Virus record (IMG/VR): IMGVR_UViG_2541047126_000018 | DNA from: a virus | Lineage: Duplodnaviria > Heunggongvirae > Uroviricota > Caudoviricetes | Reading direction: 5' to 3' (one strand) | DNA: 6,511 nucleotides | Shown: one piece after another, positions 2,714 to 6,236 of the stretch | Layout: each line of letters opens with the position of its first letter | Position numbering within the stretch: the first letter of the stretch is position 1 | Made by a program: the position numbers and the translations under genes | The notes under the pieces: generated by a model | Databases searched by the model: none | Seen by the model: the letters and a program-made list of their open reading frames with translations, nothing else | Told to the model about the DNA's origin: nothing

Positions 2714-2915
2714 AAAGCATCCCCTGAATATTCGTGTTAATCATTCCGGCACGTTTTGTGATTTCCTGTAATGATTCCCTTGTGGCGACAATTGCTTCAT
2801 CTGGTAAGTGGTAATTACACACCACGCGACCTTTATCCACATTGACCAGTAGCTGCCCTGTGAATTTCTCACGAAACTGAATGCGGTTAAGGTCAGTAAG
2901 TGACAGATTAATCAT
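2703..2915 (-). CDS. Hypothetical protein, 70 aa (start moved to the internal ATG at 2915)
   Basis: Track ORF 2703..2957 trimmed: the ATG at 2915-2913 has a consensus SD AGGAGGTG 4 nt upstream and sits 2 nt after the stop of the upstream ORF (ATGATTAA junction); the 2957 start has no SD and would overlap the upstream gene by 50 nt. Confidence 0.6.
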   Translation of the reverse strand: MINLSLTDLNRIQFREKFTGQLLVNVDKGRVVCNYHLPDEAIVATRESLQEITKRAGMINTNIQGMLYAQ

Positions 2916-3111
2916 GGCGCACCTCCTGACGAATACGGGCGGCAAATACAGCAACACAACCTGACGGGCAACGGCTACGCGCTTCGCGTTCCGTCCAGGC
3001 GGTTACGTGGATGATTTGAGATTCTCCGGCACTCAGGGCCAGAAAACGCCAGATGTATTTATTCAGGTTGTGCGAGTCCCGCCCTTGCGGGTGTGTGGTA
3101 TGATTTAACAT
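2908..3111 (-). CDS. Hypothetical protein, 67 aa, first gene of the replication-side operon
   Basis: Track ORF 2908..3606 trimmed to the internal ATG at 3111-3109 with GAGGT SD; the longer version would run through the divergent promoter region and the RHH gene on the other strand. Confidence 0.5.
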   Translation of the reverse strand: MLNHTTHPQGRDSHNLNKYIWRFLALSAGESQIIHVTAWTEREARSRCPSGCVAVFAARIRQEVRHD

Positions 3112-3190
3112 AGCTACCTCGATACTGTTGCTATCGTTGGTTGTTAGACGCCCTGCATGTGTGCCACCACTGCGGGGCGTTGTTATTTGG

Positions 3191-3301
3191 TGCATCGCAC
3201 CATCTGTTTTTAACCTATCAGCAAGTGAATCGCACTTCAAGCCTTTTCTCTGAATTTTTTTTGTGTATACTGAATCGCACCAACTTAGAGAGGATTCAGT
3301 A
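3191..3301. promoter_or_regulatory. Divergent promoter/operator region between the RHH gene (+) and the small-gene/rep operon (-)
   Basis: Three direct copies of the 10-mer TG(A/C)ATCGCAC at 3191-3200, 3226-3235 and 3271-3280; plus-strand -10-like TATACT at 3266-3271; candidate minus-strand promoter TTGAAG (plus 3235-3240) with 17-bp spacer to TAGGTT (plus 3212-3217); inverted repeat CTGAATC/GATTCAG (3269-3275 / 3293-3299) flanking the RHH SD. Confidence 0.4.
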
Positions 3302-3481
3302 ATGGCAACAGGTTCAACAAATAATAAGTCGCAACAGTTAAATGCCAGATTCCCGCATGATGTTGTTGCAGACTTAGAAAAAAATTTAGATGAAGGTGAA
3401 AGCAAAGCGCAATTTATAGTTACTGCCGTTAAAGGCGAAATCAAACGCCGCCAGCGCCGCAAGGCCAAAGAGCAGGAATAG
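3302..3481 (+). CDS. Ribbon-helix-helix (CopG/Arc/MetJ-type) DNA-binding regulator, 59 aa
   Basis: ATG at 3302 with SD AGAGAGGA 7 nt upstream (the track's 3263 start is a GTG without SD); the segment QLNARFPHDVVADLEKNLDEGESKAQFIVTAVKGEIKR fits the beta-strand/helix/helix RHH pattern; basic C-terminal tail; only plus-strand gene in the element. Confidence 0.65.
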   Translation: MATGSTNNKSQQLNARFPHDVVADLEKNLDEGESKAQFIVTAVKGEIKRRQRRKAKEQE

Positions 3482-3569
3482 CCCACCAGCAAGCCAGCAC
3501 ACTGAGCACATTGCCCACCAGACAGCAAATCGCTATGATGTTCGGGCTTATGTTTAGTGTTTTCCCATT

Positions 3570-3598
3570 GGCGACCGCCACAGGTCGCCTTTGTTTTA
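3570..3598 (+). terminator. Rho-independent terminator downstream of the RHH gene
   Basis: Stem GGCGACC (3570-3576) / GGTCGCC (3583-3589), loop GCCACA, followed by TTTGTTTTA (3590-3598). Confidence 0.55.
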
Positions 3599-3615
3599 TG
3601 TGTCATATGTTCCCC

Positions 3616-3840
3616 CTACGCTGCCTTACCTGAATTAATACGATCCCGGCTTTTAACCCATTCCATAACCTCGGAAAGCAGCCAACCTACTGAACGACCA
3701 CCCAGATTACGGCGTGACGGGAAATTCCCTTTTTTCTCCAGTTCGTAGCGTGTAGTGCGGCACACTCCTGTTAACTTACGGCATTCATCCTCACGGATTA
3801 CGCGATCTGATAGTGATTGAAATTGTGTATTTTGATTCAT
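3616..3840 (-). CDS. alpA: AlpA-family (MerR-like HTH) prophage transcriptional regulator / excision activator
   Basis: 74-aa ORF; segment CRKLTGVCRTTRYELEKKGNFPSRRNLGGRSVGWLLSEVMEWV matches the AlpA HTH signature (...GxSRST.Y.L...G.FP.P..LGGRSV.W...EV..W...) from memory; located downstream of a P4-type integrase. Confidence 0.8.
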   Translation of the reverse strand: MNQNTQFQSLSDRVIREDECRKLTGVCRTTRYELEKKGNFPSRRNLGGRSVGWLLSEVMEWVKSRDRINSGKAA

Positions 3841-3875
3841 AAAAAAACGTCCTCGAACGTTGCCGAACGAGGACG
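3841..3875 (-). terminator. Terminator/attenuator-like hairpin plus U-tract between the cargo gene and alpA (minus-strand sense)
   Basis: 8-bp stem CGTCCTCG (3848-3855) / CGAGGACG (3868-3875) with 12-nt loop; on the minus strand it is followed by 7 U (plus A7 at 3841-3847) and then directly by the alpA ATG (3840); the GAGGA in the 3' arm is the only SD-like element for alpA. Confidence 0.5.
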
Positions 3876-3902
3876 ATTCTAGGCGGTAGTAAAACGCCGT
3901 TT

Positions 3903-3935
3903 GTGTGATATCACACTACCAGCACGTGATATCAC
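3903..3935. promoter_or_regulatory. Paired palindromes, candidate operator in the cargo-alpA intergenic region
   Basis: Perfect 14-bp palindrome GTGTGATATCACAC (3903-3916) and second copy of the core GTGATATCAC (3926-3935), the latter overlapping the cargo stop codon; minus-strand -10-like TAGAAT (plus 3876-3881) nearby. Confidence 0.4.
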
Positions 3936-4705
3936 TTTTTACGTTTTTGTTGAGATTCACGCCCCAAATACTTTTGCCATGTCTGCCAATGTGTTTTTGG
4001 AAATTCTATCCCTCTGGATGCAGCTATAGAATCAATTAAATCTGCTATTTTAGGTAATGATTCCGTGTCCAGGTCTACATCACCCATTTCTGGAATAAGT
4101 TTAATTAAAGAGTAAATAACCTCATTCCTTTTTGACGATGCTTTTGGGCTATCTTCTGTTATCTTCGGGAAGTCTCCCGTATTTTTTATATTATCTAAAT
4201 CACTAGCCATCACACACAAATAGTTAACATCAAATTCATAACCACCCTTACAAAAAACATACATGAGATTATCATCACCATACTTATTCGTAAGATGAGA
4301 ACATTTTATATATTGTCTCATGCTAAATTCGACATCAGCAAAAACATATGCCGGAGTATAATAAAACCCTGATAAGCTGCTAACATAATAACATTTGATA
4401 GAATTCCCTACAGGACCAATAATGGCACTATCTAAAAATTCAGTGTCACCAGTTAAACCAACTGTAAAATTACTTCCAAAAACAGCAGATTCATCATTGA
4501 AAGGATATTTTATTAATTCTTCCTCATTACAACCATTGATAAAATGACATAATGAAAAATTGAATTTTTTAGCATCAATTTTTGGTATATATACAGAAAT
4601 ATTAAGAGCACCTATATATGCGTAATGATAAAGATCTTTTATTGCACAGCCTAACTTTTCTGCCGCTTCAGGTAACGGATAATAGAGTCTTTTAGGTAAT
4701 TTCAT
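3932..4705 (-). CDS. Hypothetical low-GC cargo protein, 257 aa, translationally coupled to the integrase; candidate accessory/defence gene
   Basis: Complete ORF; ATG at 4705-4703 overlaps the int stop TGA (4704-4702) as ATGA, with SD GAAGGTGG inside the int 3' end; GC by eye about 30-35 percent versus about 50 percent in int and rep; no catalytic motif recognised; terminator follows. Confidence 0.8.
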   Translation of the reverse strand: MKLPKRLYYPLPEAAEKLGCAIKDLYHYAYIGALNISVYIPKIDAKKFNFSLCHFINGCNEEELIKYPFNDESAVFGSNFTVGLTGDTEFLDSAIIGPVGNSIKCYYVSSLSGFYYTPAYVFADVEFSMRQYIKCSHLTNKYGDDNLMYVFCKGGYEFDVNYLCVMASDLDNIKNTGDFPKITEDSPKASSKRNEVIYSLIKLIPEMGDVDLDTESLPKIADLIDSIAASRGIEFPKTHWQTWQKYLGRESQQKRKK

Positions 4706-5925
4706 TTGGCCACCTTCAGCATAACAATATTTTCATGATTTCCAGCCAGCACATCGAGGCGCTCAACCCATAGATTAAGAGCGTCACGTTTTGCATCAAG
4801 ATAACGGGAGTGATTATAGACTCGTTGCATTCCTGGCAACTGGTGCGCGGTAAGCTGCTCCACAACATGCGGTTCCACGCCTAAATCGTTCAGCATCGTT
4901 GTAAACGTGTGCCGGATGTCGTGCAACGTCCAGGGGGCTTGATTAATGCGTCTGTGTGCCGTTCTTCCGTACTCTGATACGGATGATTGCCCTTTCAGTT
5001 CTCCGAGCAATAAGCCCGTGTGCCTGTTCTGCTCCACCAGCTTCATGACAAACGGCAAGATCGCTTCCGGTATTGGCCTGAATATTGCTACCTTCGTTTT
5101 GCTGTGTTCTTTCGGCACGGTCCAGAGCATTTCTTTAAAATCCCATTCCTGGACCTCAGAGCGTCTTAGCTCAGTGGTACGACATCCGAAGACAATCAGG
5201 AGGCGAATCAGGGCGCTGTAGTACGGTGGGTAAATTTTTTCATCAAGGGCGCGTAGTAATTCCCCAAGCTCCTTGTTTGTTAGTACGCGCTCGCTTATTT
5301 CTGCTTTTTTCCCAACATCACCGACAACCATATCATCAAGAACGTTGCTGATTGCGTATCGTCGTTTTCGGCAGTACTTAAGCGCCTGTTTGCATACCTG
5401 TAGCAAAAATCCGGCTGATACCGGATTACGCTTAGCAAGCTGGTCAAAACAGGCCAGCCAGTGGCGTAGCTCGCATTTTTCCAGTGGCATAGCTCCAATC
5501 TGGCTAATTATGTGTTTATTGATCCGGCTTTTCAGTGATTCGTAGTCAGTGCGCTTTTCCTTTGCGTACGATTCAAGCCAGTAAGTGAGCGCTTCCTTAA
5601 CCGTCACGGGGGCTAACGCGTCCTGTACAGCATGATTAAGTTCATAGCGCGGATTTTTCCCCTCAGCCAGCCATGCGCGACATTGCGACGCTTTTTCCCT
5701 GGCTGCTTTCAGGCTCAAATCTGGATAATTTCCCAGCCTCAGACGTTCAGGTGATATCTGCCTACCAGTTCCGGACCTGTAAGTGAAATACCAGGTTAAC
5801 AGGCCATTGGTTGAATGCCTTACGCTAAGGTTGCCACCATCATTAAAAAAGGTGCTTTTTGTGGTTGGTGATCCGCTTAATTTTCGTAAAAGAGTGTCGC
5901 TAAGTCTATGAATTGCCCTGCTCAT
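4702..5925 (-). CDS. int: Tyrosine recombinase / integrase, P4 family (DUF4102-type N-terminal arm-binding domain)
   Basis: 407-aa ORF; N-terminal NDGGNLSV...LGNYPDLSLKAAREKA matches the DGGGLYL...LG.YP..SL..AR pattern of P4-type integrases; box I-like CRTTELRRSEV; box II LHDIRHTF...LTAHQ...RVYNHSRY with the catalytic Tyr candidate. Confidence 0.93.
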   Translation of the reverse strand: MSRAIHRLSDTLLRKLSGSPTTKSTFFNDGGNLSVRHSTNGLLTWYFTYRSGTGRQISPERLRLGNYPDLSLKAAREKASQCRAWLAEGKNPRYELNHAVQDALAPVTVKEALTYWLESYAKEKRTDYESLKSRINKHIISQIGAMPLEKCELRHWLACFDQLAKRNPVSAGFLLQVCKQALKYCRKRRYAISNVLDDMVVGDVGKKAEISERVLTNKELGELLRALDEKIYPPYYSALIRLLIVFGCRTTELRRSEVQEWDFKEMLWTVPKEHSKTKVAIFRPIPEAILPFVMKLVEQNRHTGLLLGELKGQSSVSEYGRTAHRRINQAPWTLHDIRHTFTTMLNDLGVEPHVVEQLTAHQLPGMQRVYNHSRYLDAKRDALNLWVERLDVLAGNHENIVMLKVAK

Positions 5926-5946: not shown

Positions 5947-5974
5947 AAATTAACTACACCATTGACTACACCGT
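5947..5974 (+). repeat. Direct repeat A1 (AAATTAACTACACCATTGACTACACCGT) containing two ACTACACC octamers 12 bp apart
   Basis: Read directly; ACTACACC at 5953-5960 and 5965-5972; near-identical copy at 6179-6206. Confidence 0.8.
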
Positions 5975-5988
5975 GCATCGTACAAGGG

Positions 5989-6236
5989 CGAACTGTGACG
6001 AACAAGGGCGAACAAGAAAAACGAAATTATCCTTTATAATCATAGAAATAAATTAGATGCCCACACCATGACGAACACCCACGAACACTAACTGATAAAT
6101 AACTATCATTTATAACATTTCATTGATTAGTCTTTATTTTTCACTATGTTACAAATAACAACTCCGTCAAAAACAGCGAAATTAACTACACCATTAACTA
6201 CACCGTTTCACGAACAATATCGAACAACCACGAACA
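5989..6236 (+). repeat. Eight same-orientation CGAAC(A/T) sites in three clusters with 10-bp phasing; candidate integrase arm-type sites or iterons
   Basis: CGAACT at 5989; CGAACA at 5999, 6009, 6072, 6082, 6211, 6221, 6231; within each cluster the spacing is exactly 10 bp; a 12-mer ACAAGGGCGAAC is duplicated at 5982 and 6002. Confidence 0.75.
6179..6206 (+). repeat. Direct repeat A2 (AAATTAACTACACCATTAACTACACCGT), second copy of A1, 232 bp downstream
   Basis: Read directly; ACTACACC at 6185-6192 and 6197-6204; followed by the CGAACA triplet at 6211-6236, the same arrangement as A1 plus its triplet. Confidence 0.8.

Follow-up and report, generated by a model that had tools for sequence, protein, structure and literature searches.

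How does a phage satellite keep its activator gene alpA silent beside a constitutively transcribed integrase operon, and how is the gene then switched on? We address this question for the alpA leader, a 95-base stretch (3841-3935) of the IMG/VR virus record IMGVR_UViG_2541047126_000018; the whole stretch of DNA analysed, 6,511 nucleotides long, is called the window. In Gram-negative phage-inducible chromosomal islands (PICIs), alpA is the helper-induced master activator, and its over-expression in EcCICFT073 leads to uncontrolled replication (PMC6092414). In the Vibrio PICMI satellites, int and iolg (int-overlapping gene) are constitutive and alpA is phage-induced; alpA alone triggers excision, and iolg is essential for excision (PMC10803314). 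We propose, at even chances, that the leader superimposes an insulator, an operator-controlled alpA promoter and feedback boxes for AlpA itself. Its anatomy, covariation, conservation, geometry and shared motifs were obtained directly, and from these we infer termination, occlusion, the binding proteins and the transcription start. The features of the leader and of its two flanking genes, with the leader read on the minus strand, are as follows.

3932..4705, minus strand: int-overlapping gene, 257 aa, family A (the "cargo" of the first-pass annotation), with an N-terminal winged helix, followed by a variable middle rich in beta structure and a helical C-terminus that is conserved
3926..3935, no strand: palindrome 1, GTGATATCAC, containing the TGA stop codon (3932-3934) of the int-overlapping gene
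3903..3916, no strand: palindrome 2, GTGTGATATCACAC, with core GTGATATCAC at 3905-3914; its centre is 21 bp from that of palindrome 1
3876..3881, minus strand: TAGAAT, a -10-like hexamer abutting the hairpin, also the A/U-rich base extension of the stem
3848..3875, minus strand: RNA hairpin with an 8-bp GC-rich stem and a 12-nt apex; 3875-3868 pairs with 3855-3848
3875-3868, minus strand: 5' arm of the hairpin, CGTCCTCG
between the arms, minus strand: hairpin apex, TT-CG-GCAA-CG-TT
3864..3868, minus strand: GTTCG box 1, a candidate excisionase/AlpA-type box running from the final base of the 5' arm into the apex
3854..3858, minus strand: GTTCG box 2, spaced 10 bp from box 1; it overlaps the beginning of the 3' arm as well as the Shine-Dalgarno (SD) sequence
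3855-3848, minus strand: 3' arm of the hairpin, CGAGGACG
3850..3854, minus strand: GAGGA, the only SD-like sequence for alpA, within the 3' arm and 9 nt before the ATG
3841..3847, minus strand: U7 tract between hairpin and start codon
3840-3838, minus strand: alpA ATG, directly after U7
3616..3840, minus strand: alpA, 74 aa, activator/excisionase-family regulator (Pfam PF05930, Phage_AlpA, 3.4e-16)

Written out, the leader is ...AAAAA-GTGATATCAC-gtgctggta-GTGTGATATCACAC-aaacggcgttttactaccgcc-TAGAAT-CGTCCTCG-TT-CG-GCAA-CG-TT-CGAGGACG-TTTTTTT-ATG. In the window, the hairpin has the anatomy of an intrinsic terminator, in that an 8-bp stem with six G-C pairs, where a GC-rich stem of at least 5 bp is expected, runs directly into U7. 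Together with its flanks it folds at -19 kcal/mol (z = -4.95), and none of 200 shuffled sequences was as stable. The apex is 12 nt long, compared with 3-8 nt for the usual terminator loop, and two extra pairs around its GCAA tetraloop are possible in the window. A rule-based terminator scan did not call the hairpin because of this 12-nt apex, the scan admitting loops of 8 nt at most; an Rfam search returned no family for it, the sole match being a chance snoRNA below threshold. No second SD-like run occurs in the 20 nt upstream of the alpA ATG. The first-pass annotation had placed the hairpin, U7, ATG and palindromes at the coordinates listed above and had named GAGGA in the 3' arm as the sole SD. 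Its coordinates were correct throughout, and the SD assignment was confirmed within these 20 nt, the arrangement being kept, with covariation, in 33 variants.

These variants come from leaders gathered from E. coli genomes, IMG/VR, metagenomes and contigs encoding homologues of the 257-aa protein (Klebsiella, Providencia and sequencing-run assemblies). The covariation set comprised 33 distinct sequences (E. coli, Klebsiella, Providencia and uncultured contigs; an earlier version held 16). Across this set the 7-bp core helix is 99.1% paired, and compensatory, double-sided changes are found at five of its seven pairs; one position, for example, occurs as C-G, U-A, U·G and A-U. The observed core covariation score was reached by none of 500 shuffles, and sliding the 3' partner by 1-3 columns lowered pairing to 33-53%. 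U·G pairs are frequent on the alpA-sense strand, and the covariance model scored the sense strand clearly higher in most loci. Because the tolerated U·G pairs would become C·A mismatches on the opposite strand, the constraint appears to act on alpA-sense RNA. Judged by this pattern of change, the hairpin is a selected RNA structure of that strand.

The part of the structure that touches alpA is conserved as well. The 3' arm is purine-rich and SD-like in 33/33 variants (GAGG, AGGAG, AAGGG, AGGTGG, GAGAG), the distance from this run to the ATG is 6-9 nt in the tabulated variants, and the ATG and its spacing to the hairpin are the same in all relatives. Thirty-three variants in all have the SD paired within a conserved, covarying stem near the start codon, as in an SD-sequestering hairpin. 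At the base of the core, an A/U-rich extension of 3-6 pairs is 79% paired across the relatives and covaries where the tail is not U-rich (TTAAAT/ATTTAA in L129, CAATAT/ATAT in L124). The U-tract varies from T5 to T8 in close relatives; a U-tract directly after the stem is missing in, for example, L122, L124, L129, L192 and L265, and the tails of relatives that lack it include AUUAGAUU, AUAUCCAU, AUUUAAAU, AUACAUAA and AAUCAUUU. Seven of the 17 tabulated palindrome-family leaders have no U-tract and keep the SD-sequestering stem. Since such relatives keep the stem, the conserved property is, on this comparison, sequestration of the SD and of the bases near the AUG, and termination is a lineage-specific addition that is present in the window lineage. 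The terminator of the first-pass annotation is borne out in its anatomy in the window; as a conserved function it is not.

The first-pass annotation had further suggested that alpA output is gated by a structural switch. When 11 full leaders were folded, the hairpin had a probability of at least 0.97 in nine; the other two each carry a core mismatch and gave no usable probability, and the hairpin is nonetheless present in their minimum-energy folds. No structure that would exclude the hairpin was found in these 11 leaders, and the 28 nt upstream of the hairpin showed no conserved antiterminator pairing. Since the hairpin dominates the folds and the upstream 28 nt are unconserved, there is no basis for a switch in cis, which is unlikely.

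What the hairpin may do is indicated by where it occurs. Matches to the covariance model were confined to loci in which int and alpA are separated by a gene, and the model found no hairpin in the E. coli 042 type, EcCICFT073 or EcCIMP1, whose int-alpA spacers are ~366-430 nt. This distribution fits an insulator that shields alpA from a constitutive operon ending 55-110 nt upstream. We consider it probable that the hairpin insulates alpA from constitutive transcription of int and the int-overlapping gene. It would end or silence this transcript, and in any read-through RNA it would bury the sole SD, with the A/U base extension burying the bases up to the AUG. An insulator of this kind would keep alpA off in quiescence, which matters because AlpA alone suffices for excision and runaway replication in related islands. 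An AlpA-based scan of species-representative genomes returned four distant loci only, none with a comparable leader.

The hairpin also coincides with a boundary between island types. In the E. coli matches (L002, L003), island-type homology begins within it, at query positions 74 and 85, which correspond to window positions 3872 and 3861. Because homology between island types starts inside the hairpin, these alignments make it the junction that joins differing upstream modules, each a gene with its operator, to the alpA module.

Upstream of the hairpin, the exact GTGATATCAC is expected 0.01 times per window and is observed twice, and no further copy of the palindrome was found elsewhere in the island. 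It is exact or near-exact in 17/17 family-A modules compared, in most of which the TGA of palindrome 1 is the stop codon of the family-A gene. The palindromes are 20-22 bp apart, with an unconserved spacer of 10-12 nt (11 nt in 13 modules). Between palindrome 2 and the 7-bp hairpin core there are 28 nt (13 modules) or 30 nt (the 4 modules of the window type), again without conservation of sequence. Because the palindromes are near-invariant and their spacing is fixed, with spacer and flanks unconserved, their behaviour as candidate sites for a dimeric protein is supported. The first-pass annotation had read both as dimeric-regulator sites overlapping the cargo stop codon. Near-invariance and fixed spacing now add to the first part; as to the second, the stop codon lies in palindrome 1 (3935-3926). 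Among divergent modules, one L307 site is altered symmetrically (GCGATATCGC), a change that favours a dimeric DNA-binding protein. The two L306 sites (GTGAAATCAC and GTGATTTCAC) are individually non-palindromic, and each is the exact reverse complement of its partner, a relation compatible with either a two-fold protein complex or an RNA stem.

Other families of int-overlapping gene have sites of their own in the corresponding place. Family D genes (L287, L290, L297, L305) are accompanied by GGAAnTTTCC palindromes, ~21 bp apart and 28 nt from the hairpin, and a third family (L288, L293) by an inverted repeat that ends 28-29 nt from the hairpin. The family D protein resembles family A at the N-terminus and differs at the C-terminus; L270, which combines an A-like N-terminus with a D-like C-terminus, has the D-type palindrome. 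To our knowledge, the sites of CRP, LacI/GalR, DnaA, IHF, LexA and lambda cI do not fit the half-site spacing of GTGATATCAC. We predict, with somewhat better than even confidence, that the GTGATATCAC pair is an operator for a dimeric regulator.

Palindromes were also encountered in two other settings. Modules with a DUF6387 gene upstream (L272, L273, L275, L284, L285, L289, L299, L302) have one palindrome of 13 nt, CACCGTCGCGGTG (with variants), that ends 21 nt before the alpA hairpin and has a U-rich run after it; this might be another small terminator or a distinct operator. In L057, L061, L063 and ~40 other IMG/VR contigs of 35-60 kb, arrays of TGATATCA/GTGATATCAC with spacing 12 lie immediately downstream of a TTGACA-17-TATAGT promoter and are presumably the operators of that unrelated phage group's own repressor. 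We set these TGATATCA arrays aside as candidate helper-phage operators: their context is different, their spacing is 12, the contigs appear AT-rich and are not obviously those of E. coli phages, and no link to the islands was found.

The gene whose stop codon lies in palindrome 1 is a plausible source of such a regulator. It starts at 4705 and int ends at 4702, so that the two overlap as ATGA, and the layout is the same in relatives; an overlap with int within 1-13 nt (ATGA being the commonest) and a position between int and alpA are the layout of an iolg. The N-terminus of the 257-aa protein is a winged helix of the excisionase/MerR type, and an AlphaFold2 model made with 18 homologues reached a pLDDT of 78. 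Pairwise identity averages 55% for the N-terminal domain and 59% for the helical C-terminal domain, and falls to 27% in the beta-rich middle. A conserved DNA-binding end combined with a fast-evolving middle is what would be expected of a sensor-regulator. The protein had no match in Pfam, PHROGs, PADLOC or NCBIfam and, for want of a library match, is not a recognised defence gene. The ATGA overlap and the winged helix also speak against taking this gene, the first-pass "cargo", to be passive.

We propose that a dimeric regulator would occupy the palindromes, which lie two helical turns apart, that it is most probably encoded by the adjacent int-overlapping gene, and that it would control a weak promoter that has no -35 element and uses TAGAAT as its -10-like hexamer. 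Transcripts induced in this way would start within the 5' arm (~3869-3867), be hairpin-less and have a free SD. A transcript starting in the 5' arm would have a residual fold of -3.7 kcal/mol (z = 0). The palindrome-to-hexamer distance is fixed at 22-23 nt, and with the putative start the palindrome centres would fall at ~-41 and ~-62. Counted from the alignment of 33 relatives, the hexamer reads nAnnAT in about three quarters and TTAAAT or TTTAAT in the rest, and pairing with the 3' tail is seen in 79% of cells. A promoter scan found no canonical sigma-70 promoter in the leader. Since no promoter is called and a -35 element is missing, the putative promoter would be activator-dependent. We hold a start site nested in the 5' arm to be possible, and tentative. 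Read-through of the terminator, the other gate proposed in the first-pass annotation, is neither the sole route to alpA nor, probably, the chief one, the palindromes being placed as for a regulator of a promoter that abuts the hairpin.

Other promoter placements were considered and rejected. A -10 element within the 28-nt spacer or the hairpin apex gave only weak, non-positional A/T-rich matches. A -35 element at the right spacing (TTGCAC, TTGCTT) was found in two DUF6387-type E. coli modules and is not general in other palindrome-less modules. The experimentally tested EcCIMP1 alpA promoter (-449 to +50) belongs to a leader of a different type and is uninformative here.

The third layer of the leader lies in the hairpin apex, where two GTTCG boxes of the excisionase type, absent from the first-pass account, recur in the attachment (att) arm next to the integrase gene.

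4702..5925, minus strand: int, tyrosine integrase (Pfam Phage_integrase 1.6e-17, Arm-DNA-bind_3 2.1e-16; RefSeq tyrosine-type recombinase/integrase)
5949..5972, minus strand: doubled motif GGTGTAGTCAAT-GGTGTAGTTAAT, a candidate Int arm-type site that varies with island type
5989..6013, minus strand: three tandem GTTCG boxes with a 10-bp period in the att arm upstream of int, found by motif search

GAAC-N6-RAAC, a motif taken from the leader, has 8 matches in the window versus 0.49 expected, concentrated in the att arms, and the non-leader boxes form arrays of 3, 2 and 3 at a 10-bp period upstream of int. All 13 islands examined (sequences shown for ten) have boxes at ~-165/-155 and ~-91/-78 from the int ATG, and a box is also found at -28 from the alpA ATG in those examined hairpin-bearing islands whose apex fits the motif. 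Tandem GTTCG-like pentamers recurring every ~10 bp beside int, within the att arm, are the arrangement of TorI/AlpA-type boxes. In attL of KplE1, TorI binds GTTCG, GATCG and GTCCG sites in blocks of 2 + 3 and represses intS (PMC2951348); in the K-12 sequence we read GTTCGtcatgGTTCGcttcaGATCG next to the -35 element, in agreement with this arrangement. AlpA of the window is 31% identical to TorI (pairwise E = 3e-5), and TorI itself falls below the cut-off of Pfam PF05930. AlpA bears the PHROG label "excisionase and transcriptional regulator" and matches PDB 8c3t, an AlpA-family excisionase, at 1.3e-7.

Apex and closing pairs together read GTTCG-N5-GTTCG in the window and CGAAC-N5-CGAAC in most relatives. 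The 12-nt apex is inverted between types (TTC...GTT in the window type, AAC...GAA in L003, L072 and others) and the stem is kept, which looks like an inversion of the segment between the arms that preserved the double-stranded boxes and flipped their orientation. By this sharing of motifs, the apex most likely carries two AlpA boxes. AlpA would bind these boxes, identical to the repeats of the att arm, and so feed back directly on its own leader; whether it binds them we regard as evenly balanced.

Two observations on repeated motifs stand beside this one. In EcCICFT073, a PICI whose AlpA activates its own promoter, five tandem GAACAA-type repeats at a 10-bp period (L317 8190-8250) precede alpA by ~300 nt and are a candidate upstream activating site for AlpA. 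Next to int, the doubled 12-bp motif changes with island type (GGTGTAGTTAAT, TGTGTGGTCAGT, GGTGTATCACG and others) and the GTTCG boxes are constant (L001, L002, L263, L265, L268, L269, L270, L317), a pattern that points to the doubled motif as the Int arm-type site and to the GTTCG boxes as those of the conserved AlpA. The doubled motif is analogous to that of the HE-PICI attP (PMC10111431).

Several points weigh against this composite reading of the leader. The critical A at -11 is missing from the hexamer in 8/33 variants (TTAAAT, TTTAAT), and the A/T richness of the hexamer is equally explained by its pairing with the 3' tail as an extension of the stem. With no -35 element, the promoter would depend wholly on the putative activator; the nested promoter is a prediction from geometry. 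Modules with DUF6387 upstream keep the hairpin and have no such palindromes, the pairing of palindrome types with C-terminal domains might be due to physical linkage and not to recognition, and in RNA palindromes 1 and 2 can pair as a 10-bp stem. Furthermore, AlpA boxes downstream of the proposed start predict negative autoregulation, and the two PICIs tested show positive autoregulation; their leaders differ and have no hairpin (PMC6092414, PMC11773190).

Of the alternatives, an attenuator or antitermination leader, which was also how the first-pass annotation read it, survives best, and we consider it unlikely. On this account, alpA is made only from RNA containing the whole hairpin, transcribed from the int promoter or from a start upstream of the hairpin, and a trans factor (a helper-phage protein, AlpA, the int-overlapping gene product, a small RNA or a helicase) suppresses termination and/or opens the stem. 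The hairpin and U7 directly precede the ATG, and the A/U extension covaries with the 3' tail, which is relevant only in RNA that holds both sides. The poor -10 in 8/33 variants and the failure to predict a canonical promoter also suit a start further upstream. AlpA positively autoregulates, helper phages raise alpA transcription in other PICIs, and the AlpA homologue Vis of P4 was suggested to bind int mRNA in an earlier study, as cited in PMC2951348. The unconserved 28 nt upstream of the hairpin and the lack of a conserved alternative pairing tell against it, and the precedent for antitermination that shares the name, AlpA of P. aeruginosa, is 21Q-like and unrelated. Because the U-tract is missing from several relatives, antitermination cannot serve as the mechanism shared by all, and pure read-through leaves the fixed palindrome-hairpin distance unexplained.

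Alternatively, the palindromes might act in RNA and not as a DNA operator, forming a mutual 10-bp stem-loop at the 3' end of the upstream mRNA that serves stability, processing or ribosome release. The stem between palindromes 1 and 2 is present in the minimum-free-energy fold of most folded leaders, and the L306 pair, non-palindromic singly and exactly complementary mutually, is what such a stem would need. An RNA stem should be free to covary, yet the 10-mer is invariant across modules whose AlpA is ~55-65% identical to that of the window. Moreover, the symmetric change at one L307 site (GCGATATCGC) breaks the inter-site pairing, the L263 and L267 sites are poorly complementary, and the spacing of 20-22 bp with a fixed 28 nt to the hairpin is typical of protein sites on one face of the DNA. 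We judge this alternative improbable.

It is still less probable that the hairpin is an ordinary Rho-independent terminator of the int operon that overlaps the alpA SD incidentally and does not regulate alpA. The GC stem with U7, the upstream A-rich and downstream U-rich tracts seen in many terminators, and the restriction of the hairpin to loci with a gene upstream would all be accounted for. An ordinary terminator leaves unexplained why relatives without a U-tract keep the stem, its SD content and a 6-9 nt distance to the ATG through compensatory changes, why the ATG abuts the tail in every variant, and why conserved GTTCG boxes occupy the apex.

Least credible, and by our estimate very improbable, is a purely DNA-level element in which inverted repeat and apex form a protein-binding or recombination site (for excisionase/Int assembly or as a module-exchange hotspot), to which the boxes shared with the att arms, the inverted apex with its double-stranded motif kept and the homology breakpoints inside the hairpin would all lend themselves, but the arms covary instead of keeping their sequence and tolerate U·G and not the opposite-strand C·A, and the boxes account for the apex and not for the stem.

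We return to the composite of insulator, operator-controlled promoter and AlpA boxes, whose parts resemble known systems to differing degrees. In phage lambda, the dyad operators OR1 and OR2 are separated by about two turns of the helix, the proximal one abuts the -35 position of the weak promoter PRM, and the bound dimer can activate it. With the putative start, the geometry of the window palindromes would resemble that of cI at OR2/OR1 relative to PRM; the window sites differ in being 10 bp versus 17 bp, in having no divergent promoter and in that their start site and binding protein are putative. In translational attenuators such as ermC and cat and in riboswitch expression platforms, the SD is buried in a stem before the start codon, and a U-tract can add termination. 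Likewise, a stable stem just ahead of the start codon holds the alpA SD in its 3' arm, but the alpA leader has no leader peptide, ligand-binding aptamer or alternative pairing. Relief of the alpA SD would come from the position of the transcription start or from a trans-acting factor.

A regulator that shares the name, AlpA of P. aeruginosa, likewise acts on a gene directly preceded by an intrinsic terminator; it differs in being a 21Q-like antiterminator of eight helices (PMC7969949, PMC9371919). We rejected this protein (PA0907/21Q-type) as a homologue of the window AlpA: there was no sequence or profile match, a phmmer and PDB profile search gave only the excisionase 8c3t, and the shared name is coincidental. 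EcCICFT073 and EcCIMP1 are of the same island class and have the same role for alpA, but their int-alpA regions (366 and 427 nt) are without a family-A gene, palindromes or a covariance-model hairpin.

KplE1 (CPS-53; Panis et al. 2010, PMC2951348) is alike in its tandem GTTCG pentamers, with a 10-bp period and 2 + 3 blocks upstream of the integrase gene, and in its small winged-helix excisionase, TorI, which doubles as a transcriptional regulator. The boxes there regulate int, whereas the island adds a pair in the leader of the regulator itself, within the apex of an RNA hairpin. The Vibrio PICMI shares the order int, iolg, alpA, and the window gene matches iolg by layout and overlap (PMC10803314); the phage route to alpA activation is an open question there (Barcia-Cruz et al. 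2024, PMC10803314). The iolg genes differ in forming 13 mutually unrelated families, neither a leader hairpin nor palindromes nor a DNA-binding domain is described for that system, and AlpA of PICMI did not alter satellite gene transcription. We found no description of a composite alpA leader in the literature searched.

The window as a whole is the integration and regulation module of a Gram-negative PICI. It is 100% identical, across the 501 bases compared, to islands of E. coli O157:H7, O145:H28, O103 and other strains, and a whole-window DNA search of phage records gave no match. The island is ~11 kb and lies in the chromosome between yljB/cspD and clpS. RefSeq annotation gives the order int, the 257-aa hypothetical protein, AlpA-family regulator, a convergent YlcI/YnfO gene, an Icd-like gene, small open reading frames, DUF4222, primase, SSB and a ClpP-protease/major-capsid fusion. 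The int, alpA and primase/replication genes are co-oriented in an element of island size with a specific att site, as in other Gram-negative PICIs.

Some further features of the island were noted. A minus-strand open reading frame of 232 aa after alpA (2908-3606) is probably spurious. On the plus strand, 3302-3481 is the convergent YlcI/YnfO-family gene of RefSeq (PHROG 949, E = 3.5e-24), and a terminator-like hairpin lies on the same strand at 3570-3589, between this gene and the end of alpA. In L001, the chromosomal copy of the island in O145:H28, a small open reading frame is frameshifted (10770-11002) and the SSB gene has an internal stop (13880-14290); judging from these lesions, the element may be partly decayed. 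The block of three GTTCG boxes and the doubled GGTGTAGTTAAT motif occurs twice on the minus strand of the window, at 6235-6181 and 6013-5949, ~230 bp apart, with two further boxes in between (6086-6072). The second block of L001 lies at the island's far end (17991-18014). Because the second block is nearby here and at the far end there, the window looks like an attP junction, from an excised circle or a tandem copy, and not like attL.

Since alpA is the master switch of Gram-negative phage satellites, the way in which its leader is read bears on how these elements respond to phages. The insulator hairpin would account for the silence of alpA beside a constitutively transcribed integrase operon. 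The family-specific operator pairs point to the product of the int-overlapping gene as the regulator, and the GTTCG boxes to an AlpA binding site for excision and autoregulation. Extended to satellites of the PICI/PICMI type, a speculative and on present evidence unlikely view is that int-overlapping genes encode helper-phage sensors. These would be winged-helix regulators with a rapidly evolving middle domain that act on family-specific palindrome pairs, ~40 and ~61 bp ahead of a start nested in the insulating hairpin, and turn a phage cue into hairpin-less, translatable alpA mRNA, with AlpA feedback through the GTTCG boxes to follow. If true, this would explain both the need for iolg in phage-induced PICMI excision and the induction of Gram-negative PICIs without an Stl-type repressor. 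The question of helper-phage induction would be narrowed to ~100 bp of DNA and one protein. The leader is a compact natural case in which an RNA hairpin, a protein operator and excisionase boxes would occupy the same bases, with potential use in engineered PICI "drones".

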